A stretch of DNA of 64,000 nucleotides from Elsinoe ampelina (taxonomy: Eukaryota): the NCBI GenBank assembly GCA_010093995.1, contig ML992505.1:1195147-1259146 (forward strand). Reading direction: 5' to 3'. The position numbers and the translations under genes are program-made. The notes under the pieces were generated by a model. That model saw nothing but the letters and a program-made list of their open reading frames with translations. It was not told where the DNA came from and made no database searches. Shown piece after piece: positions 5,807-62,902 of this stretch (within the stretch, counting starts at the first letter, position 1; the number at the start of each line of letters is the position of its first letter).

Positions 5807-8800
5807 GGCAGGACGAGAGGGGAAGGGCGGGAGGTGGTGATGTTGAGGGTGGATGTGTCACGGAGTTTTGGATTAACGTGATGGATTGTATGTGATTGCT
5901 CTTCGGTTATGGCGTTCGGAGGCGGAAATCTGTTGTGGAATCATGGGTCACTGGACACGAGTTAATGCAACGCGTTACGATACGTTCCTTGAAGTGCAGA
6001 TGTATGTTTTGCTACTGACAGCGCCTGGCACGTACCATTGATCACTGCCATGATGTCTATTACACTATGCTCGCCACGCATGGATATTTGTGACACGCCT
6101 TTGACCCAACAAAACAAGCAGGAAGACCAGACCAATGTACAAATTCAATCACCTGCTAATCAAATAATAATCACCTCTGGTAGTTTGATATCCCGAAGTC
6201 CAATATCACTTGACCAGTATCATGTACGTTTTGCTTCAATCCTGCATGCTCATTCAACGGTATGCCTTCCACTATTCACTACGCCAACCCAGCAGTGGAA
6301 ATGATCCCATGCAGTACTTGGGGTTGTCCCTGTCCTGGTATCGAGGTATTCGTCCCTCAATGTCCCGAACATTTCCCAGTGTGCTACAGAATCTTACTCT
6401 CTGAGGACAATGGGCTGGATGGATCTCGGATGTCTGCTTTGTGTGGTGTTCCAATATCAGACTCTGGTTGCGTCTCGGCGGAGCAGAAGGTCGCTACTGC
6501 AGTGGGGTTCTAAAGGTCTACGTGCTCTGCTGGTTCACCATGGCGTCCTATGATGGTCTGTTCAGATATGCTGAGTTGAGTCGGGTATTCGATTGATCAG
6601 AAAGATCTGGCTCAACCATCGGTCCTTGTAGCGTTAGATAGATGATGGATCAAGTAGTTGATGGTGTTTCGTGCTGCTTGGGCACAACTGATGGCGCGAC
6701 CTGTGTCTATGTTGCTGTCAGAGCTGACGGTCGCTGCCGCGTGATTCCTGCTAAACGCTTGAGGTATGCCAACCACGTGCTCATCTAAGATTGTTGATAC
6801 CAACGCTGAGAGGCCCCCGTGCTGGTTCATGCCCGTTTACCTTGCTGCTGTAGCTCATGCCTTTTACCTATTGCTGTAACAGTCTCGTTGCCGGGGAGTC
6901 GTCAGCGCGCAGAATCCTGTCATCATCACATGATGAATGCATAGCTTGCATCTGGAAGACACTTTGTGACAGATGCAACTTCTGTGTAGCAAGTCAACAC
7001 AAACATCACAGGTGATGCTGCATGGCGTTGAGGATGGAGGGTTGCCCAGAGGTTGGAGCTTGGTCCTCGGTTCATGCAGGCTGACGGATTTGCTCCTCCC
7101 GAAATCGGGCGGAACTTCTTCACTCCATCCATCAATTCGGTGTACAACCACAACTCGTGCACCGTGATCTTCAGCGGTTATGAGCGTCAATCAGAGAGCA
7201 TTCTGATCTCACCAATACGTTGAGGATGCTATGCAAGATGTCGCTCGACCTGAGCTCACAAAGGATGGCCTCCGGTGACGCGCATCGCCTCTCCTCGACC
7301 ACATCGCAAAGCTCTACAATGACGGCCATTGCGATAGCGACACTGCCGTGCAGCTCGAGTAGAGTAGTCGAGGATGATTAAAAACTCGAAACTTGGGGAG
7401 GATGGCGAAGAACACCTCGCGGAGGGCATTGCAGCTCCGCCCGAGTGAGCGACAACAGGACAGATAGGCGTTGCGCACCCACCCAAGCGACCGCAAGATT
7501 GTGTTCAAGCACAGCTCATATACAACAGTATATCGTAGATGAGATCGGATAGTCAGAGTCCGCCCAGCTTGACCGACGACGACAACGTGTGCGACATGCA
7601 TCAGACGCCGGACCACTCGTGGCAATCCGAGGTTCTGATGACAGCGTTGAGAGCCGCCGAGGTACCGGAGAGGACAGCCTTAAGAGCCGGGAAAAGTGAC
7701 ATGAATACATCACCGGATCAGTATACCACATCAAGTCGCCATTGCCCGGGCTGTCCATGCGGGCACGACAGCCACAGCCTGCAAGCAGCAGTGTGTCCGA
7801 AGGCGTTGACGCCCACCGCAAGCATATACAATGGTTGCCTCACAGCCTGAGTATGGCAAATCGTACAATCCGCAGGAGCAACATCAACGCCTCGTTGAAG
7901 AATGTTGCTTTGTGGACATGAACTCCTGAGTCAGGCTCGCCCAGGACCTGGGCGTGGGCCTGGCTCAGGGGACTAGGAGCTGGACCTTGAGCTGGAGCTG
8001 GAGCTGGACCTGGTCTTGGACTGGATCTGGACCAGAAAAGAACTTGGAGTTCTGATGCCACGTTCCCGTATCAAGCATCGGTCCTGATTGGACCTCCTGC
8101 ACCAGTCATACCCTTGTCGGGCATTGACTTGGCTTGACTGAGCGAGCCACGCAGACTCGCATAGAGCCTTTAGACTCGGGAGTTACTCCTGCCATGTCCA
8201 CCGAGAAATCAAAGTGACAAGCGAGAAGAACAAAATGTGGATTAACGCATCACATGGAAATGAATCTTCAGAGATGTGCCAGGAAGCTTGTGGCAAATGG
8301 CCTGGGAAACAAACAGTCGACTGACTTACATCTGATCCATAATGCCACGTCAGCCAGGTTCCAGCGCTGTTGTCCGTCTTTGTCGCTGTGGACACGATCG
8401 GCCATGGTGTAACTCATCGATAAGGTCGAATCTCTCCTTTCATGCCTGCTCATCTTCCTCGGCATGAAGAGTACTGCCGATAATCTTCGGCTGTTGGACT
8501 GTGTGGTATCTCGAGTTCGCGGGACATGTTCACCAGTACTGCTCGATAGCGATGGTAGCGAGAGGGAGTCAACGATCCAGACGCGGTCTTTGACAACTTG
8601 CCCGACCACTTCTACATGGACATAAAGCCATCCAGTCTTCCGGCCCTGTCTGTATCATGCCGATGGCGCTCTAGGTTGTGGATGGAGTGGGTCGTATTTT
8701 GCTTCCCTCGAGGAACGAAATTGTCTGCCATTGAGCCTTGCCATTTGGGCTCCAACCCTGCTCTTGATAGCCGACGCATAGTCGGCCGGAGGGATACTCC

Positions 8801-10159
8801 GTACGCGGTAGACTCATTCCGTGCCGGGAACTCTGCGTGGGCTGTCGGTATCTGAAGGGGCATTGGGATACGGTGCTGTATTCAGGTCTTCCCCAGACCT
8901 TCTCCTTGGAGTGGCTGGGAGACTGTCCCATCTTCTCGGTAGTGAATGTTGCTGCATTCCCGCCCAGTCGCTCCTGTGGTTCGGCCGCACTGTGGTGCTT
9001 GATGATGGCGAACGCGGGGCCGCTGCCAGTCCGCACACTCGAAGTCATTTGGGCCGTCAAGCGATCCGATATCAATCCATTGGGCTCGAGTCGTCCCAAT
9101 ATGTTGTGAGAGCTTCTCAAAAGCAATCCAGCTTGTCGAGAGGCATGCGTGAGGGCAAGAGCTTGGGAGACGATGCCTCCCACGGTCGCGCCCATGGAGT
9201 ACCGGTATCCTTCAGTATTCCAGCCGACATGCTCTTACTGTACGCTGTTGTCGCTACTCGCGTTTTCGATCGGCTTGCTAGGCCGGCCCTCTTTTCCTGA
9301 TCAAATTGAAGCTGACCTCGTAGCGCGTTGCGCCGGAGGTGGTTGAGATGGGACGGGATGCTCGTGTTGTCGCCACGTCGGCTTTGAGACTCGGATTGAC
9401 TGTCGATGATGTCCTTGTCCGATCATGATCGTATTGCTTCTGCTGTCCCAGTCGATTGCCGATGAATGGAACGATCGCTGTCGCCGACGGTCGTGAGTCT
9501 CCGTGAGACCGCTGAAGCTGGGAGGTGGTCGGATGAAGAGACCTGCAACACTCGGCTCTTGTTAATGCATTGTGAGCCTGTACCCGCTCTCACAAAGCTT
9601 GGAGAGTCTCCTTAAGGTTCTGTATGATGATCGACGCTTTGATTGTCAATGACCGTGTGATGGTGTCGCCACTCAAAGTCTGCTGGAGCTTTGGCGCGCT
9701 CATCGGGCACAAGAATCGGAAGCGTGAAGGCGCGACGAAACACAAAGAGCTCCGGGGCTATCCGTCACTGTCAAGGGATCCTGGAATGTAGATTCGTAGT
9801 GTGCGCCGTGATGAAGCAAGGGGCGGACCAAGTGCAATCACTGAAATGTCCGCCGCGCCCGTCTGGCAGAGCAGTGTGCGACCTGCTCGCGAAAGCTCAC
9901 TATACCGACACACGAACACGACGACATGTTCACGAGGTCTATGATACTACAGTCTGCCCTTGAAACCCTACAACGGTACTCGTTCATAGCATGAGCACTA
10001 GGCCTGCAGCCATAGACCCCTTCACCTAGACAAGGCAGCGCTACACAGGGTGCACACGTTACACACTCCACGCACATTGGACATGGGCACACACACACAG
10101 GGCCGTGATGTCGTCAAGCACTCTTCTCCGAAGTCCAGCAACAGCTAGACGATCGATGA

Positions 10160-10303
10160 AAAGACCTCAAGAGGTTGGCAAAGCAAAAATTGTTGTAACC
10201 CAGCTACCAGGGCTGGTACGCCAGACGCATCCGCTGTGCAATGGATGTTCTAGCGGTTCCGAGGCATTCATGAGGCCTGGAACTACAAGTGGCGGCACAG
10301 TAT
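10160..10303 (-). ncRNA. U1 snRNA-like variant A (5' end AUACUGUGCC)
   Basis: Minus strand AUACUGUGCCGCCAC; helix H UUGUA/UACAA; SL1 GUUCCAGGC-CUCAUGAAU-GCCUCGGAAC; SL2 CAUCC-AUUGCACAGC-GGAUG (U1A-type loop); SL3 CCAGC/GCUGG; Sm site AAUUUUUG (10184-10191); 3' hairpin ACCUC-UU-GAGGU. 3' end approximate. Confidence 0.88.
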
Positions 10304-10382
10304 GAAGAAAGAAAGAGGAAGTTTGGGGGCGAAGCAGAGGTATATATACCCTCTCACACGCGGCTCTGCGGCGGCTCTGCGG
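10304..10382 (-). promoter_or_regulatory. Promoter of U1-like A: TATA box, pyrimidine initiator and GC element
   Basis: TATATATA at 10341-10348, CTTCCTCTTTCTTTCTTC abutting the start, tandem GCGGCTCTGCG(G) (+ strand) at 10360-10382. Confidence 0.7.
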
Positions 10383-10539
10383 CTCGCAGAATCCTGTTTC
10401 TCCGTTGCACGGGCGACGAGAGGGCCACACGTAGCGCCACACGTCAGCTCAAACCAGGAAATGACTCTTCTCCGAGGTCCGGCAGCAGCCAGAACAATCG
10501 ATGAAAATGTCTCCAAGGCAAGAATCATCGCAAGGATGG

Positions 10540-10699
10540 GACGCCCTGAAGAGAAGGGTAAAGCAAAAATTACGCACAACCCTGGCGTCCCTACTTACCT
10601 TACTTACCCTGGGGTGGGACGCACAGAGACACATGGGTCCGAAGATGCCATGCGGAAGCAGAGACTTCATGATCTCTCCACTCCTGTGCAAGAAAGTAT
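10540..10699 (-). ncRNA. U1 snRNA-like variant B (5' end AUACUUUCUU; tandem 5' splice sites in SL3 loop)
   Basis: Helix H GCACA/UGUGC; SL1 GGAGUGGAGA-GAUCAUGAAG-UCUCUGCUUCC (U1-70K-type loop); short SL2 with UUCG and no AUUGCAC; SL3 GCGUCCC...GGGACGC; Sm site AAUUUUUG (10564-10571) followed by CUUUACCC. 3' end approximate. Confidence 0.88.
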
Positions 10700-10763
10700 G
10701 AAGAAAGAGAGAGGAAGAGTGGTGTGTGGGAGAAATATATATCCCCTGCATGCGGCTCTGCGG
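10700..10763 (-). promoter_or_regulatory. Promoter of U1-like B
   Basis: ATATATATTT at about 10733-10742, CTTCCTCTCTCTTTCTTC initiator, GCGGCTCTGCGG (+ strand) at 10752-10763, shared with copy A. Confidence 0.68.
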
Positions 10764-11419
10764 GACCTCGGATCACGCAGCCGTTGATTCGGCGGCCAGA
10801 GTGGAAGATCATGGAATCAGAGAGCTGTTTTGGCTTTGCATTGCCAGCGCACTGTAAAGGATCAGGGCAATGTAGCCAAGGGCTGCCTTGTCTAACTCAG
10901 GCAGTAGCAAGCTCCGCGCGAGAGATGACCGCGTGCGAGGCTTCTGGCAGTGGTGGAGAGCCCTCGAGGTCACTGCCAAAGCGCTTGCCATCACTGCTGG
11001 AGGTGATTGGCGAGATCTCCTTGCTACGCAGCCGTGAAGGGCGCTCCTGTCGTCACCGTGATATTTGGATTGCCTTCTGGGATGACATTGAGAAACGCTC
11101 TGCCTTCTGGAACGAGATGCCCATGACCCCGAAAGCCACCGTGAATTTGGATTGCGTGGAAAGCCTCACATCTGCGAACCACAGTCTGCTGCTTCATGGC
11201 GAGGAAGGCCAGGCGCACAAAGCTTCATGGTGATATCCAAGGACTTGATCGCCTGACATGGACTTAATTGTGTGCAACTTCATGCAGAGTACAGGGCTCA
11301 GGTCAGAGATCATGCGAGGGCTTCAAGAATCACGTCGCACAAAGGTCAAGGTCAAGGACAGATGCGAAATCACACGAGAGCGCAAACATCATGAGTACTC
11401 CCCTCCGAGACAAGGCGAT

Positions 11420-11580
11420 GAAGCCCAGGATCGATGGGGGGTTCCAAAAATTATCCGGTGATCCTGTGCAAGCACAGTCCAAGCTTATCAGAACCAATGT
11501 GCAATGGCTCCAACTCACCTCGTACCAATGGCAGAACCATCAGCACAACCGGCGGGACCTGCTGGCTAGGCAAGTCGACT
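11420..11580 (-). ncRNA. U1 snRNA-like variant C (5' end AGUCGACUUGCCUAG)
   Basis: Helix H CCGGU/ACCGG; SL1 GUGCUGAUGG-UUCUG-CCAUUGGUAC (no 70K loop); SL2 GGAGCC-AUUGCACAUU-GGUUCU; SL3 CUGUGC-UU-GCACAG; Sm site AAUUUUUGG (about 11444-11452). TATAAAA (11619-11625) lies 45 nt upstream, as in copy A. Confidence 0.82.
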
Positions 11581-12221
11581 GAGAAAAGAAAGAGGGAAGA
11601 ACCTGGTGCGAAGAGTTCTTTTATACCTTCGTTCCCTCGGAGTTCGGTGCGTGTCGGCGCCGACATGGTTGGGAGCTTGTGAGGTCACCGCCGTGGTGAT
11701 GAGGTGGTTGGGGCAGAGACCAGCCACTTGTTCACAGCTGCCTTGGTTGGAAGCTTCCAAACAAGGCACAAATGGCGCTGGGTCAGCTCACCACCAGCGC
11801 GGAAGACCTCGTTGAAGGCCGTTGCTGTGAGGACGAGCGCCGATCAGCAAGCTACACCTTGGTTGAGACACTTCCAAACCGGTTCGCAGCGTACCAGGTG
11901 CACCGTGACCAAGCTGCGCCTCCCGTTGTCCTTGATGCCATTCCGTGCAGCTGCCGAAACATGCTCTGTGCACTTCCACCGCGTTCGAGGAAGCTCCATG
12001 ATGACGTGCCTGTATACCACCTGCGCTCGTACACGACCTGACGACCAGCGGACGTGAGGTATGGGATGGACCAACGGAGACTGTGGGCGCATGGCAGCAC
12101 GCGTGTCTTCGAGATGTTAGGCTGTGGAAGCGGATTCATCACAAGTCACAATGCTGGAGGGGAACAGGAGGCTCTTCTCCAAGGCACAGCTGTAAAGCCA
12201 TACAATGATGAAAACATCAAA

Positions 12222-12399
12222 CAGCGAGGCTGTGAAGAGGGTAAAGCAAAAATTCGGCGAGAGAACCTCGGAGAGATTCAGGCCCCGGAGTGCAATGGGA
12301 CCGGTCAAAGGGATTCATGAGCTCCAATGACCCACACCAGATGGTTTCGAAAAAGCATGTGCTGCTGCTGCTGTTGCATGGGCGGTACATACAATTTCT
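12222..12399 (-). ncRNA. U1 snRNA-like variant D (about 60-nt 5' extension with CAG repeat)
   Basis: Helix H UGGUG/CGCCG; SL1 GGUCAUUGGA-GCUCAUGAA-UCCCUUUGACC; SL2 GGUCCC-AUUGCACUCC-GGGGCC; SL3 GAAUCUC-UCC-GAGGUUC; Sm site AAUUUUUG (12247-12254) followed by CUUUACCC; TATAAAA at 12440-12446 and CTTCCTCTTTCTTTCTCC initiator. Confidence 0.85.
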
Positions 12400-14309
12400 G
12401 GAGAAAGAAAGAGGAAGAGATTGTCCAGCGAGAGACAACTTTTATAGAACTCAGCGCCAAGAAATCCCTTGGCCGCTTACGTGATCACCCGCGACGACAG
12501 CATTGGCTCGCTTGCTGGCGTTCCCGGCCGGGAGAGCGGCAGCGAGGCCTCATGCGGTATGGCGTCGCTCGCAGGCCGGCTCAGGGGCCCCTGGGAGGGC
12601 TGCCAGGAGGTGAGCCAGGGCCTGTGGGAAGGGCGGCGGGAAGCCATGATATGGCGGCGGGCTCACACCACAAGGTCGCGCAAATACTGAAGCTATCAGC
12701 GGTGATCAGAAGGATCTCACGATCATTTTGAGACTACTTAAAGCATCATACACCTTGTGGTGGTTGCGCAAGACGTGATTGTGTGTTCGATGAGCCCGAG
12801 GGAGCTGATTTCCACGCACCTTTGAGCGGCGACGACGACATGACCAACACTCGGATGAGCATCAAATTTTGGATGAGGATGATCGCGTGGATGCAGAGAA
12901 CATCATCTCGAAATCTCATGATCATAGCTTCACGTTTGAGAATCTGTCATCTGGTGGGCTCGCAGCTCATCCCATTCGACATGGTTCACCAGCTCCGCAG
13001 CGGCCCACGACGCTGAGCCAGGCAAAACCAATCGGTACGCTCAATCACCAACACCAAAAACACGCGAGATTCCTCACTGCACAGTGTTCGGGCCTTCCGA
13101 ACATGATCCAAGCTGAGGGCTATGCACGTTAAATCACAAATCAAGACGGCTACACTATGCTCATGAATGACCGGCCAAAGTTCTGGGTATCAGAGCGCAC
13201 TGGAAGACACGAGCAGTACCCTCATGTGAAGGACGTTGGGATGACAAGTATGACATTTGACGCACGCGTGTTTATATGACCACTCGACACGACTGCTCCT
13301 CAAGGTTGAAGGCCTCAGGATCAGCATTGGCGAATGCACACCATCTTGATCGAGCAGCGATAATCTTCGGAAGACAGGACCCTTTCGTGCCACTGCCGAG
13401 CCTGGTATCTACATGCCTTGACTCCTCCTTGTCCGCCATGACACGCGCGTACTTCCATCTACCCTGCTAAAGAGCCGCCATCTACAAGTCGTCGGGCGCA
13501 AATTTGGTCGAAGAGGGGATCGTAGACCCCAAGTGCTGTCAGACCAAACAGACGCATCTGCGCATGCCTGATCTCGATTGGTTGTGACGTGCGAGAATGG
13601 CCCTAGTCGCTGGAGACGATAGCGAGAAGGATAGCGCTGCTCGGTGACTTTGTGAGGACCACTCCTTCGCCTTTTTTCCTCGACCAATGCCTCCTCCCGT
13701 TGACAAGCCGTCGCGGAAGCAGAGCAGACCACATGAAGGCCGCACGACTTTTTGTCGGACCATCGCGCTCGCAATGTGAGGTTGCAGTATATGCTTCCAA
13801 GCACTTTGCGCCTCCCTGGACTCGCGATAGGTAGGCCAGACTCTTTGCTCGTCAGGGCCATTGCTCGTGTCCCCTCATGCCGTTGTCCTTGCTCTTGGCT
13901 CCCTGTGTACCTTCCCTCACTCTTGATCATCTTCGCCTCCTCTCTCCCCGAGCGTGGCAGGGTCGCGCCTCAAGAGTCGCGGTCGGAGGCTGTGGTAGTC
14001 GCAGTGCGCGTTGATGGCGGAATCCTTGACGGTGCTTATAGTTGGCTCTCATGTGTGCGCCAGTCATTCTTTGGGGGAGCTTGCGAGGTCGTGATGCTGG
14101 ACGAATGGTCGTGAATTTGAAATGGACGGCCGGGTCTGTGACTTCCTCGTGGTGGGAGCTCATTCGAACACTTCTGGATGGCCGAAATTGCGACCAGGCC
14201 CGGATCGTTATGCATGCCTCCTTGCCAACGTATACCTTTGTCATACCTGCGAACCTGTTGTAGGCCCCCTTCACCTACTGCATCATCGTGTCAAGTAAGT
14301 GCGTGGGGA

Positions 14310-14590
14310 TAGATCTGTCAAAGGGGCGCCTCTTTGTCCTCCATGTGGGATATACTTGTGCATACACAAAGGATGCCCACATGAGAGTCCCTTGGCATAC
14401 GACGGACAAAGCCGTGCGACCAAAAAGCTACTCCTGGATGTCAAAACCGCCAGATACGGAGTGCTGGAGTTCAAACCCAGCTTGCGTCGCGTCGAGATCT
14501 TTTCCCTCAAGGAGTCTCTATACCACCACCATGCATCTTTGTGTGCTGACTGTGGTTGCAAAAGATGCGCCTCGAGCTGGAGATCCTCAT
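14310..14590. other. Nested imperfect inverted repeat; possible structured RNA or MITE remnant
   Basis: Colinear complementary blocks: 14325-14335/14561-14571, 14360-14376/14533-14546, 14384-14394/14508-14519, 14413-14420/14486-14492. Confidence 0.45.
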
Positions 14591-15138
14591 CGTCGTGGGA
14601 AAAATGCAAAAAAAGAATGTTGCAACAACATTATGTGTTTCCAAATATTCCCTGTCTGCTGCGTGACAGAAGTGGTTCACGGGGGATGCACGGGGGCAAC
14701 GTACCACTTTACCGTCGCACCAAGTGGCCTCCCGAGGGGCCGTACCTGGTGCGACGGAAAATAGTCGCGTCGCAAAATATATGAACCTTGATGTCTGGAC
14801 CTTGGGAAATGCTCTGCAGACATGGCTGGCACAAGGTAAGGGGAATACAGAGCATTGCGAGTCTCACATAGCACGGCAGCGATGGTGGAAGCTATCTCAT
14901 TCATTCTTGAACTTCTATGATCATTCTTCGATTTATTGGAAGTGATCGAATGCTCCGGTAGGTAAAAGAACAGCAGGTAAGCCAGGAGCCGCGCACAAAT
15001 TTGCCAAGCCTCTCAGCACAGACATATTGCACTCACACGCTCTCATTCTTCTCCTGGCGATCACTTTACACATACCGACACCACCGGTATAAGAAGCACA
15101 ACTGCAAGAAGATCCTTTGGCTACCAGCAGTGGTAGTC

Positions 15139-17764
15139 ATGGCACAATCCGCGGGGGAATTCCCTCGCTACAGCGATGGCGATGTTGAGGTACGACTCAC
15201 GAAGCATTAGACTCACCTAGATCATGAACTCTTCACTGACTCACTTCAGATCGTCCTATCGGCGGTACTCCGATACCAACTTCATGCGCAGACCCTGCGG
15301 CGCGCCAGCAGGGTATTCGCCGCTCTCCTTGATGGGGACGGCGCTGCCCTGTCGGCCAGGGCGCGCGCGCGGGGTGTCGTGGTGCGGCACCGTCTGTCTC
15401 TCGTAGAGGCAGGCGGTGTCTACAGCTTCCAGCGGGAAGCAGTGGACTCGGAGGGGCGGAGCAGGGGAGTAGGTGGTATCGGAGGCCTCGGTGCGAACGG
15501 TGCCGACGTCGATGCCGTCGTCGCGGGGATGACCTTGGTCCTCCGCGCCATCTACAACCTGGAGCTCGCCTTCGACTTCACCGATGTGCGAGCCCTGGCC
15601 GAGGACGTGATGGGGGTCCTCGGCTGCGCTGAGCTGGTTAGGGCTGTGAGTTTCTCCATCTTTTGAACTAGGCAGATTCACTGACGATTATCAGGCCCCA
15701 TCAGTCACCAAGTCGCTGGAGAGTGCTCTCCTCACGCAAGAGCAGCAGCTGTTTGTGGCCATATCACAACAGCCGACCGAATGGATCAAGGTGGCCAAGC
15801 GCTTGTCATCACGCACCATCTTCAAAGAAGCCATGATTCACATAGTCGGACGCTACAATGAGCTTGCAGCCGCACCTTACACATCACCGACCCATCCTCA
15901 AGTCAAAGGACTCTCCAAGCTATCAAGTCTGCCCAAGGACATCCTCACACTGGTCAATGCGCACCGAGATGAGTTTACCAAGACAATCAAAGCCGTTCAC
16001 AATCGCTTCTCTACATGGTATCCTGAGCAGATCAAACGCAACAACACCACTGGCTCAGCTAAAGGCGACGGATTCAATCTCAGAGACTACGAAAAAGACA
16101 TCAAAGATTGGATGGCACTGACAATATTTCACCAATACTGCATGCTAAAGCTTACGGGCGAAATGGCTATCGGCTCTTCCGACACTGGCTTCCAGATCAT
16201 ACAGAAACTCTTTGAAGGAGGTCAAAGCTACCTACCATTGCAAGCCTGCGCACAATGGCACCTCCGCTTTCCCATGTCCAAACGTGGTCAAGGCATCATC
16301 CAAAACTCGCTCGACGAGATCAAGAAGCACGTTTCAACCATCGTGGCGCCGCTCATGGTTACTAAATGCCAGCTCAACACCACCCTCCATCCCGTCGCTT
16401 GGTTCACCTGCATCGAAGTAGATATCTCACGATTCGAATTCGTCCAGAATGACTCCGGCACCATCGTCCGCTCTTGCAGCCCTAAAGATCACGCCGTACC
16501 AGACTGGCTTGCTGATGTCCAGTCGGCATCCGAGCATGAAGAGCATGAAGTGGAAGACCAGGATGACGAAGCATCAACCTCGGCACCAAACAAGGCACCG
16601 CCTCTTAATCCTCGTCAGCCGACATCGGGCCAAAGAACTCAGAACGACACCTCTACATTGCGCAAGACACGCAGAGGAGCACGAGCAGAGGAAGAACAGC
16701 AGGATGACGACAGCACATCTGCATTGGGCAAGGCACCCTCTCTCAACCCTCGTCAGCCAACATCACGTACCAAGAAGGCAGGCAGCACCACGACGAAGCG
16801 CAAAAGAGGTCGACAGGAAGAAGAAGAAGAAGACGATGGCGATGATCATGATGACGATGAAGCTCCTCTACGCAAAGTCAGGAGAAGAAGACAGATCAGG
16901 CACATCAAAGGAGCCACGAAGATCCTCGACGATGCCAACAGCACTGGTCCTGGTGAGTATGAAGATGGAGGGGGTGCCCCCGACGCTCGCCCCCAGGATC
17001 AAGAGCAGCCGAACGGACAAGCGAAAGAAATTGCCTCGGCAGCGGAAGAAGACGAAGACGAAGACGACAGCCTTTTCGTACCACCCCACCGAAAGAAGAT
17101 CCAGGAGGCAGAAGAGACAGAGCACGCATCGGCAGATGAAGTCAACAGCCTTTTCGACCCAGAAGAGCATCCTATACAGGAAGCAGGTGCGACAGAGCGT
17201 GCATCAGCAGACGAAGTCGACAGCCTCTTCGTCTCAGAACAGGATGCTATACAGGAAGCAGGAGCGACAGAGCATTCGACTCAAAAGGCCGAAGTCGAGG
17301 TCGAAGAAGGAACCAATGAGATCGAAACCGGCGACAGCGTCAGCCTTGTGGGCACCATCACTCGCGACACCAACAGCAGCGTCGCCGTCAATACCAGCAA
17401 CATCAACAACAGTGAAATCAACCTCGACGACCTCGAGATCAGCCCCATCAACATGGATGAGATCGACACAGCAGACCCCAACAACTGGTACGAAATCCCC
17501 GAGGACGAACTGGAGAACATTGACCGGAAGAGTCCGACGCCTCTGCCGTGGACCCCGGAACATGAGTACTCGTCGCCAGAGTCACACCCGGAACAGGATC
17601 CCGATAGAGCCTTCTGGTACACCGACCGCAGTGACGTTGATCGAATGGAGCAGCAGTATCAGGACAGACTTGATGCTGCAGAAGGGTTGTTGGCGTTCGG
17701 TGCGGAGGTTGTTGTCAATGCGCCGGAGGATAATGCGATTGAGTCTATTGAGAGGGATCCTTGA
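15139..17764 (+). CDS. BTB/POZ-like domain protein with acidic, repeat-containing C-terminal tail (3 exons)
   Basis: MAQSAGEFPRYSDGDVE|IVLSAVLRYQLHAQTLRRAS is a typical fungal BTB start; introns at about 15190-15249 and 15646-15694 join it to the 669-aa ORF containing IFKEAMIHIVG. Confidence 0.75.
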
Positions 17765-20324: not shown

Positions 20325-20681
20325 TGAGGGGATGTCAGAAAGACATTATCTACTGTATACCATAGTCTTACGACGAAGTGTCGTGGTACAACATGTATTG
20401 TAGGCTATGAAATGGAAAAGCTTTGAGATCATGCGGACTATTTCGACCCTACCGAAATTTGATCGCACATTATGCTTATGGCCCCGATGGAAACGAAGAG
20501 ATTCATTCTAATATCCCGTTTAGCTGTCTGCGTGCGGTGATGTGAATGTCAAATTGCCAAGCGGAAGCCAAAAACGCGGCAGAATCCCAGAAAAATGTCC
20601 TCACCGCCTTTTCCTATCAGAACCATATCCTCACATCTCCAACTACTCGCAGTCACAACCAATCCGCCTCAAAACAACAAA

Positions 20682-22595
20682 ATGAAGCGCAAGCTCTCCG
20701 ACCGCGAGGCTCCAGAAGCCACAACCCCCTCCCAGCCAGCCGCCACACCCACCTCTCCCCCACCGCCTCCCCCATCAACCAAATCCAACAAACCCGCCCC
20801 AAGCTTCTCCACCCTCCCCCTCGACCCCCGCCTCCTCCAATCCCTCACTGCCCAACAATTCTCCGCCCCGACCCCCATTCAGTCCCGCGCCATCCCCCTC
20901 CTCCTCCAAGGCAAAGACGTCCTCGCTCGCGCCCGCACCGGCTCCGGCAAAACAGCCGCCTACGCCCTGCCGTTGCTGCACCGCATCCTCGCGCAGAAGA
21001 GCACGGGAAATGACACGGGGAAGAAAGTCTCTGGTTTGATACTGGTGCCGACGAAAGAGCTCGCGGCGCAGGTGACAAAGGCCGTGGCGGCGTTTGCGCA
21101 GTTCTGCGGGCAGATGGTCAAGGTGGAGAACCTGACGCGGAAGGAGGAGGAGGGGGTGTTGAGGGCGAGGGTGGCGGGGGGACCGGACGTGGTGGTGGCT
21201 ACGCCTTCGAGGGCGTTGGGGTTGGTGAATGCGGGTGTGTTGGGATTGGAGGGCCTGGTGGGGTGTGTGATTGATGAGGCGGATTTGGTGCTGAGTTATG
21301 GACACGAGGAGGATTTGAAGGCGTTGAGTGAGGTGGTGCCCGAGGGGACGCAGATGGTGTTGGTGTCGGCTACGTTGAGGAAGGAGGTGGAGACGTTGAA
21401 GGCATTGTTTTGTCCGCAGGCGGTGGTGTTGGAGATGGAGGATAGGGAGGAGGAGGGGAAGTTGAGGCAGTTTGTGGTCAAGTGTGGGGAGGATGAGAAA
21501 TTTTTGCTGGCGTACGCGATTTTTATGTTGAAGTTGATCAAGGGGAAGGTGATTGTGTTTGTGGCGGATATTGATCGGTGTTATAGGTTGAAGTTGTTTT
21601 TGGAGCAGTTTGGGATAAGGAGTTGTGTGTTGAATTCGGAGCTGCCGGCGAATAGCAGGATCCATGCGGTGGAGGAATTCAACAGGAATGTTTACGACAT
21701 TATCATCGCAAGCGACGAGAACGAGGTGGTGGGTTCGGAGGAGCGGAAGAGTAAGAAGCAGAAGCGGAAGGCTGTCGAGGAGGATGTGCAGGACGAAGCT
21801 GAGGAGCAAGACGAGCCCGTCGCAGATGACAAGCCGAGCGCACCAGCAGCGGAAGAAGACGAAGAACAAACAGAACTCGGCGATGCGGTGCCCAAGAAGA
21901 AGCGAAAACGGTCCAACCGCGATGCTGAGTATGGCATCAGTCGCGGCATCGACTTCAAGAATGTCTCTTGCGTGCTCAACTTCGACCTCCCACTCAGCTC
22001 GAAATCATACATCCACCGTATCGGGCGAACAGCACGAGCAGGCAAGACAGGCATGGCACTCTCCTTCTGCGTCCCCAAAACACTCTTCCGGAAACACAAA
22101 CCCACCTCCATCGCACAGTGCGCAAACGACGAGGAAGTCCTCACGAAAATCACCAATTCCCAAGAGAAGAAAGGACAGAAGATCGAACCCTACGACTTCG
22201 ATATGAAACGTCTCGACGGCTTCAGGTACCGCATGGCAGATGCACTGCGATCAGTGACAGGTGTAGCAGTCAGAGAAGCACGAACGAAAGAGATCAGACA
22301 GGAGCTGATCAAGAGCGAGAAACTCAAGCGGCATTTCGAGGAGAACCCTGAAGATCTCGAAGCTCTACGGCACGACAAAGAGACGCACACTGTGCGAGTG
22401 CAGCAGCATCTGAAGCACATACCGGAGTATCTCCTCCCGGGCGGCGCAAAGAGCGTTACCCAAGGCAACGTCGGCTTCTCCAAAATCGGCGAGAACAGGA
22501 TCAGAGCCGCCCGGAAGCGCAATGCCATGAAGAGCAAGAAGGGAGGGAAGAAGAAAGCCGGCAAGGATCCGTTGAAAAGCTTAGGCAGGAAGTAG
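20682..22595 (+). CDS. DBP9: DEAD-box RNA helicase Dbp9/DDX56
   Basis: [20 protein letters not shown] and [10 protein letters not shown] motifs; [12 protein letters not shown]; likely start MKRKL. Confidence 0.95.
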
Positions 22596-41655: not shown

Positions 41656-44600
41656 ATGGACGATCACGCGAAGCCTATGCCTGGCGACACAGATGTCATG
41701 AACGATCCCGCATTCGACACAAACACAAGCGCAGCCCAGGGTGACTTTGACAAGGACACATGCCGCATCTGTCGGAGTGAGGGCACTGCTGAAGAGCCTC
41801 TTTTCCATCCCTGCAAATGTAGCGGCAGTATCAAGCATGTCCACCAAGAGTGCCTCATGACCTGGCTATCTCATACCAATAAGAAGCACTGCGAGCTTTG
41901 CAAGACTTCTTTTCGCTTCACCAAGTTATACGATGCGGACATGCCGGACAAGTTGCCTTTTGGGGTGTTTATTTCAAGAGCTTGTCTACACATCTTTAAC
42001 TACTTTCTGACTTGGATGAGGGCAGCCCTGGTCGCTCTCATATGGCTGGTCATCCTCCCGTGGGCAATAAGATGGGCTTGGCGGGGGTTGTTTTACATGA
42101 TGGACGCTGGATGGGCTCGAGAGCCTTGGGTGGCAAGGCTAGCAGCGGAAGCTCATACCCCTGACACTCAGACGGAGACCGCCAACAATATCACCTCCAA
42201 AGCAACACAACCAACAAGTCCGGAATTCTGGTTGGGTCCGTTTTACGGCAACTTCCTTCTCGGCTTGTGGAATGTCGTATCTGGCCCATGGAAAAGCTCA
42301 AAGTCTGCCGCCAGTCTACCACTGGATCCCTTTCTCAATGCTACTGTCAGAGCTGCCACAGCCACACTCCTGTCGGATCTGGACTTTGCACAAACCTTGA
42401 CTGATTCACCTGCAGTCAACAGGGCCGTCCTGGATGTCATGGAAGGGCAGATTATAACAATCGTGGTGGTCGTCGCTTTTATACTCGTATTTCTCATTAG
42501 GGAATGGGTCATCCAACAGCAGCCCATCCTGAACGCGGCAGCCCACGTTAGAGAAGCAGAGCAGCAGCTAGATCGTGTTGAGCGCGCTCGTCAGGAACTT
42601 CGCGACGAGATACGCATAGTGGAAGAGCAACTGGCGCAGCTTACCAACCCGACTTTGGCTCTTGAGGACACTGTGACGTCGGAACAAAATGATGCGACCA
42701 CTGCGACCGCGGATAGGCCTCCCTCTTCCTCTTCCGTGAGTCGACGAGCCAACGCAATGAGTTGGAACGTCTTCAAGCGCATTGTTAATGAGACCACGGA
42801 GACTTGGATATCAATGGATGTGCCACATTCCCCGGAGAGCATCGCTCTGGTACGCAGACTCACCGACGAGGTGGTAGATATCATAGACGGCGTTCAGGAC
42901 GGGCGCTACTCGGATGTGGAAATGTTCAATCGCCTCATAGAGTGGGTGCGAAGAATACCTCCAGATGTAGACACAACGTGGTTGTCCATGCTAGCCAGGG
43001 TCTTTTCGTCGTTGAAGTCGCAGCGTCGAGATGCTTCGAGCTCAGAGCGGGACCATGATGAGCCCTCAGAGGAGATACAGACCCCGTCCTCTTCCAATGG
43101 CGTTCCCACTCCAGAAAGTTGGGAGGATGAGGCAGACGGCGATACGTTGACCGAGGACCAAGCGGCTGCTCCACCATCAAATGACGAGTTACTCCAGACG
43201 CAGCAAATTGACCAACAGTCTGTCTCTGGCCCGTCGACAAACACCGACGAACCTTTGCAAGAACGGACTGTGGAGGATTCAGCAGCGGTACTAGCCTCTC
43301 CCGATAGCACAGCAACGCCAGTTGTCGAGACCCAGACACAACTCCAAGATCCAGATGCTGAGCGCAATGACCCAGGGGTTGGCCCATCATCGCTTCAAGG
43401 AAATGATGAGGATGCTCCACTCGAGGCTCCAGAGGCAGCTTCGTCTTCAGTAAGATCTCCATCCGCAAACTCAACACAATCGAGGAAAATCGAACAGACC
43501 AAGAAAGGAATACTCGATCACATGTACGAGTACTTCTGGGGCGACATCGATACCGAATCATTAGTCGTCGAAACGAATCAAGTCGGCAATGTTGTGCCCG
43601 AGGATGCACAGGTCGTCGAGCTGGTCGACAGGGGTGACCGTCCTGAGCCTCATCGAGACCAAGATTTCCTTCTTGAGCCTGTCGAGCAAGATCCAGAAGT
43701 GCTAGCAGCTGCGGCTGAGGCTGGTTTGGATGCTGAAGCAGTGGAGGATGCGGAAGATCTTGAGGGCGTTCTCGAGCTCATCGGCATGCAGGGCCCCATC
43801 GTTGTCTTGTTCCAGACTGCAGTGTTCTGTGGACTGCTCGTCACCGTCACTTTATGGGGAGCTCTCGGCGCTCCATACTTGTTCGGCAAGCTCGCTCTGC
43901 AGATACTCGGTGATCCTGTCTTGTATGCCATTATTGTTCCTCTGCGGACCATCGCAGGCATCGGCGACTTTGTTCTCGACATGATTATCTTCATCGGTGG
44001 AGCATTTGGTTATGGTTTGTTGACGCTTGCGTACCAAGCTGAGATGGCGATAAGGGGCAATTTCGGACCCGTCTCGACCGACAACCTCGAAATGCTTGAA
44101 AATGCCGTCATCAAGTCCTCCGAGAGAGCTGCGGCATTCCTAACATCAGTCTTCTCGGCTGGAGGTAGCACCGCCGGCACAGACTCTTACTTTCTGCTCG
44201 CTTCTCTGCAGGCTCATCATTCTCTGAACACGATAAAGTATACTCTTAGCGGCACTTTACGGTGGGGTTATGCCGAGGTCAGTACTTTGTTAACGTCGTC
44301 TTTCGCAATGATACTGGGCCGATGCTGGGATTTCGTGCGCTGGGCGTGCAACTGGCTCTATCTTGATATTAATGGCGATAAGGACGCTGTGCTTGGGCTT
44401 CTCCGGCAGATCAAGGATGGCAAGATCTTCTCGCTGACCATTCGCCAAGCCGAGCCTATCGAGCTGGATCCTATCCTTTCATTCTGGAGCGGCACTGATC
44501 GAGCCTTGACCATACTCACCGGGTACGCCTTCTTAGCCGCGATTGGAATCGCTTTCGTCCTCAGACGCGAGCCGTGGTTCACCACACCAGCTCTGCAGAA

Positions 44601-46548
44601 AGTCGAGAAGAGTCTAACAGATGTTCTGAAGCAGGCAGGAGGTGTGATCAAGGTCATCCTGATTATCAGTATTGAGATGCTCATGTTCCCTCTCTACTGC
44701 GGCATGCTCCTCGACATTGCACTCATGCCACTCTTCGAAGGTGTCACACTAGGATCGAGGCTGGAGTATGCTCAGAACAAACCCTATATGTTCGCCTTCC
44801 TTCACTGGTTCCTCGGCACTGCCTACATGTTCAACTTTGCCCTATTCGTCTCCATGTGCAGGCGAATCCTACGCAGCGGTGTGCTTTACTTCATTAGAGA
44901 CCCAGATGATCCAACATTCCACCCGGTACGAGACGTGCTGGAGCGTAGTATCTACACACAGCTTCGCAAAATAGCATTCAGCGGCCTGGTGTACGGTATG
45001 ATGGTCATCATGTGCCTCGGCGGTATTGTGTGGGGCTTCGCAAGTACGAGTCGGCATATCTTTCCGCTACGCTGGTCGACGCCAGACCCGGTGTTGGAGT
45101 TTCCTGCCGAGTTCCTGTTCTACAATTTTCTGAGCCCGTTTGTGCTGAAATATATCCAGCCGTCCAAGGGTCTGGAGTCGGCGTATGAGTGGTGGCTGCG
45201 CAAGTGTGCTCGACGACTCCGTCTGTCACACTTCCTCTTCGGCGAGCGGAAGGAGGATGAAGAACGAGTTATCATGACGCCTACCGAGAAAGGCGAGCAG
45301 GCATACAAGAAAGATGGCGTGTATGTCAGAGTTCCCGCATCTGATCAAGTGCGCGTCCAAAGAGGTCAACCAGTGTTTGTGGCGGTGACGGAGCAAGATG
45401 TCATCAATGGTGAAGCTGAGCAAGAGTGCTCGCTACATGGTCGACCAAATCAGCGGTTCAGGAACGTTTACGTCCCACCATGGTTCCGACTTCGAATAGG
45501 ACTATTCCTAGGCGGTTTATGGATGTTGTGCGCGGCGATCGGCATCACATTCACTGTCTGGCCCCTTCTCCTCGGTCGCGGACTCTGCGCGCTCATGTTC
45601 CCTAGCAATGTCCGCATCAACGACATCTGGGCATATTCGATAGGCTTACATGTCTTCATCCTAGCTACCTTCGTTGGCTTCAGAGGCAAAGCCGTGGTCA
45701 GAGCTGCAGGCAAGAAGATGGGATCAACTTCGGTCCTCGCGAGCAAGACAATACATGGTGTGGCCTGCACTGCGAAGTCTCTCTACGTCTATGGCTTCGT
45801 AGCTGTCCTGATCCCGACCCTCGCTGCTTTCATCATCCACTTTTTCCTGGTCATTCCAACACGTACATATCTCCACTCACTAGTTCCTCCGACTGAGCCA
45901 CCTACCACTTCATTCAATCCGAACAACCTCACGTCCGTCTTCTCCCAGCCATCATCCCTCCTGGAGTCAACGCCAAAACCCAATGGACCACAAGACCTCG
46001 TACCAATGCACAACATCTACCTCATCCCAGACTGGACCCTCGGCCTCGTCCTCTCCCGCTTCTTAACAGCCATCGCCCGCGCCTCATCCTGGCCCCTTCC
46101 CGCCGCTCTCTGGCGCCAACTCACCCGGAACGGCTACCTCAACCCAGACCTCCGCCTCGCCAACCGCGCCATCGTCCTCCCCTCGCTCCTCTTCTCCATC
46201 ACCGCCCTCCTAACACCATTCCTCTTCGCAAGCGGCGTCGTCCACGTCCTCCTGCCCCTGTTCCTGCCCGCGGGCGTGGCGATCGACACGACTGCCCGTG
46301 TAAAGATCTACAGGTACGCGTACCCGGTCGTTCTGGCCCATGTGTTGGCCGTGTGGGGGACGTATGGGGCACGGAAGGGGGTGAGGAAGTGGAAGGAGAG
46401 GATCAAGGATGAGGTTTATCTTGTGGGTGAGAGGTTGCATAATTTTGGGGAGAGGAGGCCGCCGAGGGGGAGTAGGGGGGTGATGAAGAAGGGGAAGGAG
46501 GTGGTTGGGGGGGATGTGGAGGGGGTGGGGGAGGGAGTGAGGGGGTGA
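41656..46548 (+). CDS. DOA10: ERAD E3 ubiquitin ligase Doa10/Ssm4 (MARCH6)
   Basis: N-terminal RING-CH CRICRSE...LFHPCKCSGSIKHVHQECL...CELCK; multiple TM segments; FIRDPDDPTFHPVRDVLE; IKDEVYLVGERLHNF. Confidence 0.95.
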   Translation: MDDHAKPMPGDTDVMNDPAFDTNTSAAQGDFDKDTCRICRSEGTAEEPLFHPCKCSGSIKHVHQECLMTWLSHTNKKHCELCKTSFRFTKLYDADMPDKLPFGVFISRACLHIFNYFLTWMRAALVALIWLVILPWAIRWAWRGLFYMMDAGWAREPWVARLAAEAHTPDTQTETANNITSKATQPTSPEFWLGPFYGNFLLGLWNVVSGPWKSSKSAASLPLDPFLNATVRAATATLLSDLDFAQTLTDSPAVNRAVLDVMEGQIITIVVVVAFILVFLIREWVIQQQPILNAAAHVREAEQQLDRVERARQELRDEIRIVEEQLAQLTNPTLALEDTVTSEQNDATTATADRPPSSSSVSRRANAMSWNVFKRIVNETTETWISMDVPHSPESIALVRRLTDEVVDIIDGVQDGRYSDVEMFNRLIEWVRRIPPDVDTTWLSMLARVFSSLKSQRRDASSSERDHDEPSEEIQTPSSSNGVPTPESWEDEADGDTLTEDQAAAPPSNDELLQTQQIDQQSVSGPSTNTDEPLQERTVEDSAAVLASPDSTATPVVETQTQLQDPDAERNDPGVGPSSLQGNDEDAPLEAPEAASSSVRSPSANSTQSRKIEQTKKGILDHMYEYFWGDIDTESLVVETNQVGNVVPEDAQVVELVDRGDRPEPHRDQDFLLEPVEQDPEVLAAAAEAGLDAEAVEDAEDLEGVLELIGMQGPIVVLFQTAVFCGLLVTVTLWGALGAPYLFGKLALQILGDPVLYAIIVPLRTIAGIGDFVLDMIIFIGGAFGYGLLTLAYQAEMAIRGNFGPVSTDNLEMLENAVIKSSERAAAFLTSVFSAGGSTAGTDSYFLLASLQAHHSLNTIKYTLSGTLRWGYAEVSTLLTSSFAMILGRCWDFVRWACNWLYLDINGDKDAVLGLLRQIKDGKIFSLTIRQAEPIELDPILSFWSGTDRALTILTGYAFLAAIGIAFVLRREPWFTTPALQKVEKSLTDVLKQAGGVIKVILIISIEMLMFPLYCGMLLDIALMPLFEGVTLGSRLEYAQNKPYMFAFLHWFLGTAYMFNFALFVSMCRRILRSGVLYFIRDPDDPTFHPVRDVLERSIYTQLRKIAFSGLVYGMMVIMCLGGIVWGFASTSRHIFPLRWSTPDPVLEFPAEFLFYNFLSPFVLKYIQPSKGLESAYEWWLRKCARRLRLSHFLFGERKEDEERVIMTPTEKGEQAYKKDGVYVRVPASDQVRVQRGQPVFVAVTEQDVINGEAEQECSLHGRPNQRFRNVYVPPWFRLRIGLFLGGLWMLCAAIGITFTVWPLLLGRGLCALMFPSNVRINDIWAYSIGLHVFILATFVGFRGKAVVRAAGKKMGSTSVLASKTIHGVACTAKSLYVYGFVAVLIPTLAAFIIHFFLVIPTRTYLHSLVPPTEPPTTSFNPNNLTSVFSQPSSLLESTPKPNGPQDLVPMHNIYLIPDWTLGLVLSRFLTAIARASSWPLPAALWRQLTRNGYLNPDLRLANRAIVLPSLLFSITALLTPFLFASGVVHVLLPLFLPAGVAIDTTARVKIYRYAYPVVLAHVLAVWGTYGARKGVRKWKERIKDEVYLVGERLHNFGERRPPRGSRGVMKKGKEVVGGDVEGVGEGVRG

Positions 46549-47090
46549 TGGGTGAGAAGGGACTGGAGAGGAGATGAGGGCGAAGGGTGATGGGTTGGGG
46601 GACAGGAGAGAGAATGAATGGTGATGTGATCATGCAAGCATTGATGGAGTTGGTATACCCTCTTTTCTGAATGCCATGGTTAGAAAGTATAGGTTCTTTC
46701 ACTGAGCCTGATTGATGAATGCAATCGCTACAGCACCTGAGATTCTAGTGTATCAAGTGACACTACCGTGATGTGGGTTCGAAGATTTTGATTGCGTTCG
46801 GGCCATGTCCTCGCCCTGGTACCCGTCTCTATGCAATATTGTACAATGTCGACCTCAGTCGACCGTAGCCCTACTCCATACCATCTTTAGCGCCATTGCC
46901 CCTCTGCCGTCTTGCCTTCTCGTCATGTCATTCAATCCCCTCTGAAGATTCGGCCCCCTCTATCTCACCATCAATCCCAGTGGCCCTCCCCTGATATATC
47001 CCCCCTCCTCCCTAGCACCAATCCCTTCCCCTCCCATCGACCCTCCTATCCCCCAATCCCCTTCCCCACCCATCCCTCCTCGCCACCATC

Positions 47091-59092: not shown

Positions 59093-59310
59093 CTAGACCA
59101 TGAGTTATGATACCCTGTATAGAAAAACTAGAACATGCCTGGAAAGTATTGTCGCCGATCAATGTATAGTGATTGTGAAGGCACATGACTTCGCGTGCGG
59201 CTCAACGCGTCAAACTGTCGCCACGCGACCCCACCCGTACTTTAGACTCGAGCTTCAATTGGAGAACTTTACACTTCGCATCACGAGTGGACAGCCACCA
59301 TATCGCAGGA

Positions 59311-62681: not shown

Positions 62682-62902
62682 GCGAATCACGTCGGGGCGT
62701 AGCATCAAGCGAGCGTCCGGGAGCTGTACGAACGATGACATGCTCAATGTCAAGACAAACGAGCAGGTACCAAAAATTCATGTAACATTATCCATTCAAG
62801 ACATCTAAATGCATGCAACGAATGCTTCCTACCCAACCCAGATCTAAATGCAACGCCAAACAACCCAAACCTCTCCCCGTTTTCCCTCTCCTCTCATCCT
62901 CT

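Follow-up and report, generated by a model that had tools for sequence, protein, structure and literature searches.

A tandem array of four diverged U1-like small nuclear RNA genes in Elsinoe ampelina, one of which carries a 5' arm that its own donor-site mimic may mask

Introduction

The array described here, which lies in a stretch of 64,000 nucleotides (nt) of the Elsinoe ampelina genome (GenBank assembly GCA_010093995.1, contig ML992505.1, positions 1,195,147 to 1,259,146 of the forward strand; this whole stretch is called the window below, and all positions are given in its numbering), consists of four genes, named A, B, C and D, whose predicted products resemble U1, the small nuclear RNA (snRNA) by which intron starts are located. 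The best explanation for the array is that of four tandem U1-derived paralogs on the minus strand of an Elsinoe-type Dothideomycete. An initial annotation of this DNA had remarked on the first bases of gene B and proposed from them a dedicated U1 for introns that begin with GA and end with AG (GA-AG introns). The model we favour combines a U1-type particle specific to this lineage with a 5' arm that has left its usual function and that can be hidden by an imitation of a donor site carried by the same RNA.

Results

Gene B is a U1-type gene

Gene B (10536..10699, minus strand, like every feature of the array) is predicted to encode a U1-like snRNA of the Sm class, of about 160-164 nt with an approximate 3' end; it is delimited by its alignments to the Rfam U1 family (RF00003) and to a covariance model built from paralog A (R1, see below), and by folds. 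RF00003 aligns to B from end to end (10540-10699), the first base being the A of ATACTT (AUACUU in the RNA), and the predicted 5' end is AUACUUUCUU. The score amounts to 22.6 bits (E=0.007 in a 3.5-kb search of 9000-12500), which does not reach the gathering threshold of 69.5 bits, and the gathering-mode Rfam scan of the whole window returned no match. In the whole-window Rfam search, B is the sole U1 match that persists (E=0.13), none other appearing up to E=5. R1, run over the whole window with filters off, recovers B at 20.1 bits (E=0.0072, aligned 10538-10699). The AUACUU start, a U1-70K-type loop, the Sm site and the 3' hairpin are all retained, the U1A loop is lacking and stem-loop III is enlarged by an insertion. 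B is a U1-type gene, and it is not a canonical U1.

The promoter side of B comprises a TATA-like box, ATATATAT (10735..10742), which starts at -43, and a CT-rich tract, CTTCCTCTCTCTTTCT (10702..10717), which lies just upstream of the predicted start and ends at -1. The RNA opens with the 5' arm AUACUUUCUUG (nt 1-11, 10689..10699; ATACTTTCTTG on the minus strand and CAAGAAAGTAT on the plus strand), followed by helix H, whose 5' side is placed by the model at nt 11-15. Stem-loop I (nt 17-44, 10656..10683), placed by the Rfam alignment and the folds, is composed of a 9-bp stem and of the 10-nt loop GAUCAUGAAG (10665-10674), which aligns to the consensus GAUCAaGAAG and is of the U1-70K type (AUCAYGAAG type). 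The position of stem-loop II is occupied by a short hairpin of the UUCG type (nt 46-70, 10630..10654) with the cap UCUUCGGA; the U1A loop AUUGCAC (CATTGCAC), which a motif search finds in A, C and D, is not present in B. The enlarged stem-loop III (nt 72-119, 10581..10628) combines the stems CUCUG with CAGGG and GCGUCCC with GGGACGC, has a 39-nt insertion with respect to A, and bears in its loop a tandem, perfect donor-site mimic, GGUAAGUAAGGUAAGUA (nt 92-108, 10592..10608). The Sm site AAUUUUUG (nt 129-136, 10564..10571) was located by motif search and by the Rfam alignment, which sets UAAUUUUUG of B against the Sm site of U1, and the 3' hairpin, stem-loop IV (CCCU with AGGG, 10544..10558), by the R1 alignment and a constrained fold. 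Beyond the gene, the flank alignment reveals a conserved stretch, TTTTCATCGATTGT ... GGACCTCGGAGAAGAG (10465..10507), a candidate signal for 3'-end formation.

A 248-nt contig (depth 2.8), from a run guessed to be RNA that may be DNA, covers 10415-10662; it is colinear with the genome and unspliced, and it extends from nt 38 of B, across the mimic, to about 120 nt beyond the predicted 3' end. A second low-depth contig, from another run guessed to be RNA, covers 11656-11820, outside all four genes. An mRNA-type intron in B (GUAAGU...UUCAG) was considered and rejected: its excision would remove the Sm site, the bases concerned line up with the part of A and D that carries their Sm site and 3' hairpin, and no good branch site is seen by eye.

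Four paralogs with a common promoter layout

With Rfam in E-value mode, the interval 9000-12500 yields four low-scoring matches to U1, which share the minus strand and lie within 2.2 kb. Paralog A (10158..10303; Rfam match 10161-10292, 15.0 bits) folds as a clean U1 cloverleaf with its arm, AUACUGUGCCGCCAC, free, and possesses the loops CUCAUGAAU and CAUUGCAC and an Sm site. Paralog C (11436..11580; Rfam match 11440-11563, 16.6 bits) has the loop CAUUGCAC, the Sm site AUAAUUUUUGG and the arm AGUCGACUUGCCUAG, lacks the U1-70K loop, and contains an internal GAG/GUGAGU (the slash marks the exon-intron border here and below). Paralog D (12213..12399; Rfam match 12213-12347, 16.1 bits) again takes the form of the U1 cloverleaf; its loops are AUUGCACUCC and CUCAUGAAU, an Sm site is present, and a 5' extension of about 55 nt with a CAG repeat and GUAUGU comes before AAACCAUCU. 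The body of D is the most canonical of the array, its loop AUUGCACUCC being exact, and its extension, with a (CAG)4-5 run and GUAUGU, folds as a hairpin of its own.

In the alignment of the four loci the RNA bodies are poorly alike (mean column identity of 55%) and the promoter and the 3' flank are conserved; the invariant stretches are the CT tract, the Sm site and a TCGGAG..GAG motif. The CT tract, CTTCCTCT(T/C)TCTTTCT, ends at the C-A start and is common to A, B and D, C having a variant; its three matches in the window (0.72 expected) are all at array genes. CT tracts directly upstream of transcription starts are a feature of strong promoters in filamentous fungi. The TATA-like box starts at -45 in A, -43 in B, -45 in C and -47 in D. 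The Sm site pattern AATTTTTG occurs six times in the window against 1.33 expected, and four of these matches fall in the array genes. The shared 3' flank reads TTTTCATCGAT...TCGGAGAAGAG, the latter element being found behind A, B and D.

Two further observations concern the flanks. A 3' motif, TTTTCATCGATYGT ... GGACYTCGGAGAAGAG, occurs downstream of B (10465-10507), A (10121-10160) and D (12172-12215), the copy of C being weaker, and is a candidate snRNA 3'-end signal. Some 10-20 nt upstream of the TATA-like box, the motif CGCAGAGCCGC is present in A (two copies, 10363-10385) and in B (10751-10761), not in C or D, and represents a possible upstream promoter element.

The 5' arm differs in each of the four genes, and none is canonical. 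Read in the standard register, the arm of A would call for a 'CA' donor. The arm of C, ACUUGCCU, would suit GC donors, or GU donors by wobble; written AGUCG-ACUUGCCUAG, it matches the canonical ACUUACCUGG except for A7>G and G11>A, so that its pairing would be perfect with GC and by wobble with GU. C also holds a full intron-like signal, GAG/GUGAGU ... CUGAU ... CACAG/, of 55 nt, which spans its U1A-type hairpin, and the ACUUGCC of its arm is, by eye, complementary to its own GGUGAGU.

A common fold with changed helices

An alignment of the RNAs with MAFFT and RNAalifold misaligned the stem-loops and was discarded; model R1 was therefore built from A alone, aligned to itself with the cloverleaf structure imposed. 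In a whole-window search with filters off, R1 gives 20.1 bits to D, the same score and E-value as to B, and on C it matches the stem-loop II part only, at 6.7 bits. All five helices are placed in the R1 alignment of B, in which helix H and stem-loops I-III form a four-way junction followed by the Sm site and then by stem-loop IV. When A, B and D are aligned to R1, standard pairs are formed in 97.7% of the 88 cells and both sides have changed in 23 of the 35 pairs; none of 500 shuffles matches the observed pairing values, and slid partners leave 30-51% paired. The modelled alignment shows a U1-type four-way junction common to A, B and D, in which the predicted helices differ in sequence and stay paired, and this argues that the helices would have been maintained since the duplication.

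The arm of B and the donor mimic

The canonical U1 arm, ACUUACCUG, is the complement of GUAAGU donors, and the arm of B departs from it by two substitutions, A>U at position 7 and C>U at position 9. The initial annotation had reported the first of these; its reading of the arm is borne out (10699..10689, minus strand), with C9U to be added, and its interval of 10688..10699 contains the 11-mer at 10689-10699 plus, at 10688, one base past it. When two mismatches or fewer are allowed, the canonical 11-mer is found 8 times in the window, where 7.16 matches are expected, and 8 or more are reached in 43 of 100 shuffles. The 11-mer by itself is thus at chance level, and it is the U1-like sequence downstream that makes the observation on the arm count. 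Two look-alikes of array motifs, ATACTTTCCAG at 59139-59149 and AATTTTTG at 62771-62778, both on the minus strand, were set aside as they have no U1 context.

The mimic is a 9-nt tandem duplication within the insertion of stem-loop III, and holds two of the window's five occurrences of GGTAAGT and two of its three occurrences of GGTAAGTA. Across the four RNAs, a count made post hoc finds GT[AG]AGT three times (twice in B, once in C) against 0.19 expected; since the two copies in B are the product of one duplication, the probability for two independent events is about 0.016. For the canonical arm, the calculated duplexes with the two mimics are of -12.2 and -11.6 kcal/mol. The arm of B itself pairs with its own AAGGUAAGUA over 9 positions, U103 (the U at +2) being bulged.

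Two folds of B are obtained. In the minimum-energy fold nt 2-10 are paired to nt 99-108; in the cloverleaf, which emerges once the arm and the Sm site are held open, nt 1-10 are single-stranded. When the Sm site is kept unpaired, the calculated energies are -54.1 kcal/mol for the masked fold and -52.3 kcal/mol for the free-arm cloverleaf; both states of B are plausible. Opening nt 1-11 costs 6.1 kcal/mol in B versus 0.9 in A; when the rest of B is shuffled the mean cost is 1.9 kcal/mol (standard deviation 1.7), and 8 of 300 shuffles reach 6.1.

Donor pairing and the search for GA-AG introns

In the standard register, nt 7 of U1 pairs with intron position +2 and nt 8 with +1. In this register the ideal target of the B arm is indeed a GA donor, with GG accepted by wobble, as the initial annotation had deduced: the calculated duplex is -11.4 kcal/mol with CAA/GAAAGUAU, -11.1 with CAG/GAAAGUAU and -10.6 with CAG/GGAAGUAU, versus -6.6 with CAG/GUAAGUAU, which leaves one mismatch and which the canonical arm binds at -14.0. 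In a register with U+2 bulged, the arm of B also pairs with the ordinary donor AAG/GUAAGUA. The single intron fixed by protein homology in the window is GUACGU...AAG, and its donor, UUG/GUACGUAG, the only one verified in this way, gives -1.6 kcal/mol with the arm of B.

The annotation had found no GA donor among the window introns it could read, and likewise no GA-AG intron was identified here, in screens of low power. The pattern GA[AG]AGT followed by a branch site and YAG was found for 6 of 54 sites (11%), a share that falls inside the 3-23% of the control dinucleotides and is smaller than that of GT (7 of 38, 18%), in a window screen with almost no power. The full complement of the arm, CAAGAAAGTAT, searched with at most one mismatch, has one match in the window, the opposite strand of gene B itself, the power being again very low. 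Neither the joining of open reading frames (ORFs) nor the donor, branch site and YAG screen of the window separated GT from the control dinucleotides, so that these window screens cannot serve as a test for GA introns; moreover, the GT[AG]AGT donor pattern leaves out GTACGT, so the screen could not detect the verified intron.

One site is worth recording. At 46683 on the plus strand, TTA/GAAAGTATA (GAAAGTAT) presents the ideal target of B at +1 to +8 and is followed by CTGAT and YAG, with an interval of 51 nt. It lies about 135 nt beyond the stop of a MARCH6-like ORF (41656-46548) and would constitute an intron of the 3' untranslated region; about two such 8-mers are estimated to occur by chance.

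The array in a close relative

A relative of about 91% identity, represented by sequencing run X6, keeps the gene order D-C-B-A. Its differences from the window are those among the ones listed, and differences near alignment ends may be missing. The arm region of A (10274-10301) has about 24 extra letters in the relative, and nt 10-128 of B (10572-10690) are replaced by 139 letters that cannot be aligned at 80% identity or more. Among the differences listed, none falls in 10691-10748, which tentatively leaves unchanged the first 9 nt of B and its core promoter. In this relative A and B are identical over about 58 nt at their 3' ends (10514-10571, Sm site and 3' hairpin), where a contig of double depth joins both, which indicates sequence exchange between the two copies, as judged from the assembled sequence. 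The 3' hairpin of A is there of the B type.

Surroundings of the array

The four genes are housed in a stretch of about 7 kb (about 8500-15700) without long ORF and without Pfam match. The longest stop-to-stop ORF in 8.5-14.5 kb has at most 187 codons, and eight stop-to-stop ORFs of 8.6-14 kb gave no Pfam match above the curated cut-offs. Elsewhere in the window, an Atg6 ORF (56021-57469, minus strand) is 97% identical to the Elsinoe batatas protein, and a DEAD-box ORF (20595-22595) displays no clear likeness to the U1-releasing helicase. A metagenome scan for genes like B, with the pattern ATACTTTC..TCATGAAG..AATTTTTG, returned 16 loci that by inspection are all AT-rich chance matches, and none of the 16 gave a U1 match up to E=1.

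Discussion

The model we propose, to which we assign a probability of roughly 0.55, is that B specifies a variant form of the U1 particle peculiar to this lineage, the arm of which is the product of drift or of repurposing and can be covered by the donor mimic that the RNA itself contains. B would be transcribed by RNA polymerase II; its product would gain an Sm core and probably bind U1-70K, thereby forming a minor U1-like particle. The arm of this particle would not act as a general reader of intron starts, having drifted after the duplication or been repurposed, and would alternate between being free, in the cloverleaf, and being masked by the pairing of nt 2-10 with the second mimic. In our view the A7U/C9U arm characterizes a U1 paralog that has diverged and that may be regulatory, and does not amount to evidence for a GA-AG splicing system.

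Several points weigh against this model. That the genes are paralogs of the canonical U1 is what we infer from their resemblance to it. The covariation test involves three sequences and an alignment fitted to the very structure under test, and for these two reasons it leans towards that structure. The masked fold is ahead by 1.8 kcal/mol only with the Sm site open, and bound proteins could alter this predicted balance. The arm of B fits GA and GG donors better than GU donors, as the hypothesis of the initial annotation predicts. Finally, the expressed-looking B is known here from the sequence of its gene alone, and the promoters shared across the array could reflect gene conversion rather than selection.

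The comparison with canonical U1 (RF00003) summarizes what B has kept and what it has lost. As in canonical U1, the AUACUU stands at the first base, the arm of 10 nt is single-stranded in the cloverleaf and leads into helix H and a four-way junction, the loop GAUCAUGAAG fits GAUCAaGAAG, and the Sm site is located between stem-loops III and IV. B differs by U7 and U9 in place of A7 and C9, by the lack of the AUUGCAC loop, by the 39-nt insertion of stem-loop III with its donor mimics, and by a score of 22.6 bits versus the threshold of 69.5. We know of no described precedent for a built-in donor mimic able to pair with the arm of the same RNA.

The nearest parallel is found in human variant U1 (vU1) genes. 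A 2006 paper on these snRNAs reportedly carries the title 'U1-like snRNAs lacking complementarity to canonical 5' splice sites'. The vU1 genes are described as U1 paralogs with their own promoters and changed arms, some of them not complementary to GU, arranged in tandem arrays and of debated function (PMC3561869, PMC10870369). B likewise is a U1-like gene with its own promoter layout and a changed arm in a tandem array; the animal genes are near U1 in sequence, whereas the array described here is fungal, its bodies are about 50% identical with the fold kept, and it is known from genes alone. In Entamoeba and Mastigamoeba the natural U1 arm is reported to deviate from ACUUAC and to match an atypical donor (bioRxiv 10.1101/2022.06.08.495308). 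These are again natural U1 genes with an altered arm; by that account, however, each genome has a single U1, whose change affects the bases facing +3/+4 and fits the genome-wide donor consensus, whereas in B, a minor paralog, it is the partner of the near-invariant +2 that has changed. In fungi, one or a few genes per snRNA are reported (PMC2396436), and Aspergillus fumigatus is described as having two U1 isoforms, 1 nt apart, that fit the Rfam structure (PMC2377427). A four-gene array of diverged U1 genes is therefore unusual for a fungus.

Among the alternatives, the one that survives best, although we hold it to be unlikely, is that the array consists of decaying U1 pseudogenes or near-neutral relics whose likeness in promoter and 3' flank would be maintained by gene conversion. 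In its favour, all four genes are far under the Rfam gathering score and at least one U1 hallmark is gone in each (none has kept the canonical arm, B is without the U1A loop and C without the U1-70K loop); in the close relative, the body of B is unalignable at 80% or more and A and B show signs of sequence exchange at their 3' ends. Decay, however, would not give 23 of 35 pairs changed on both sides with the helices kept. The loops CAUUGCAC and YCAUGAAK and the Sm site are intact although the stems differ, the spacing from TATA to start is held at 43-47 nt in all four genes, and the array has been retained in the relative with its gene order.

An improbable reading makes of B a decoy or partner of canonical U1, whose normal arm would bind the mimics, thereby tuning the amount of free U1 or subjecting B to U1-dependent nuclear retention or processing. 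The predicted pairing of the canonical arm with the mimics (-12.2 and -11.6 kcal/mol) is not far from that with the ideal donor (-14.0), the tandem duplication in the insertion accounts for two of the three window copies of GGTAAGTA, and donor-like hexamers are enriched across the array genes. Two sites on a presumably rare RNA cannot, however, titrate the abundant U1, and in the predicted fold the mimic is partly taken by the arm of B itself.

A broader proposal, which we regard as a long shot, is that all four genes of this fungus give rise to a family of particles that derive from U1, that are expressed and whose arms have been reprogrammed; B would be self-masked in it, and its released arm would select a few non-GU donors (GA or GG) or targets other than splice sites. 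If this were true, the fungus would gain a second, switchable reader of 5' splice sites.

The dedicated U1 for GA-AG (or GG-AG) introns, acting by pairing of U7 with A+2 or by wobble with G+2, is a speculation that we consider very doubtful. What speaks for it is the advantage of 4-5 kcal/mol of GA and GG over GU donors in duplex energy, the fact that B still starts in the register of U1 and retains a U1-70K loop and an Sm site, and the first 9 or so nt of B, for which no difference is listed in the relative of about 91% identity. A published proposal along these lines concerns one U1 isoform of the copepod Eurytemora affinis, in which C8>U with a shifted reading was proposed to serve GA donors; thousands of GA-AG introns, 3.2% of the supported sites, are reported in that species, and the same U1 change is, according to the authors, also present in a human pseudogene (PMC7072748). 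The logic is the same, an arm substitution in one U1 copy leading to GA donors; the change there is C8>U, whereas B has A7>U and C9>U and no GA-AG intron was identified in its window. For 130 fungal genomes, Table 1 of the same report gives all minor splice-site combinations jointly as 0.257% of the annotated sites (PMC7072748). In the low-power screens of the window, intron signals were no more frequent at GA sites than at the controls, and the full target of the arm does not occur outside gene B. The arms of the sister genes match no donor class, that of A being unstable between close relatives; the arm of B is predicted to be masked and can pair with a GU donor with its U bulged; and B, at 22.6 versus 69.5 bits, has no U1A loop. 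In addition, U at +2 is read again by the catalytic spliceosome after U1 has left, and GA donors tend to stall past the first splicing step, so that a change in U1 alone would be insufficient for GA donors.

It is equally hard to credit, and if anything harder, that B works as a weak alternative U1 on ordinary GU donors, through a mismatch at +2 or a bulged U+2. In animals, U1 is known to pair in bulged and in shifted registers, the arm pairs with its own AAGGUAAGUA by 9 pairs with U103 bulged, and CAG/GUAAGUAU still reaches -6.6 kcal/mol with one mismatch. This affinity is nevertheless far below the -14.0 of the canonical arm, the verified donor UUG/GUACGUAG gives just -1.6, the U1A loop is lacking and the arm is predicted to be masked.

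The idea that B, and perhaps C, are built like spliced-leader RNAs, in which a donor pairs with upstream sequence and an Sm site follows between hairpins, so that the 5' part would be donated in trans, may be dismissed as scarcely credible: the order of the parts fits (arm, donor mimic, Sm site, hairpin), as does the arm-donor pairing, and C has GAG/GUGAGU upstream of its Sm site with an arm, ACUUGCC, complementary by eye to GGUGAGU; the leader would nonetheless be of 92-101 nt ahead of the donor, far above known leaders, B has a full U1 cloverleaf and a U1-70K loop, the mimic sits in an insertion inside a U1 stem-loop, A and D have the same fold and no such donor before the Sm site, the only contig across the site is unspliced, and spliced-leader trans-splicing is, to our knowledge, not known in fungi.

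In conclusion, our observations emphasize a variant U1 particle, with an arm that the RNA itself may hide, as the most coherent account of gene B and of its neighbours. A literature search of limited coverage found nothing on variant U1s in fungi and nothing on U1 snRNA in Dothideomycetes. If the array is silent, it illustrates the decay of snRNA paralogs under gene conversion; if it is expressed, it offers a small and genetically tractable system in which the function of variant U1 particles can be approached. Within the limits of that search, a conserved array of structurally intact, diverged U1-type genes would be the first fungal counterpart of the variant U1s of animals.

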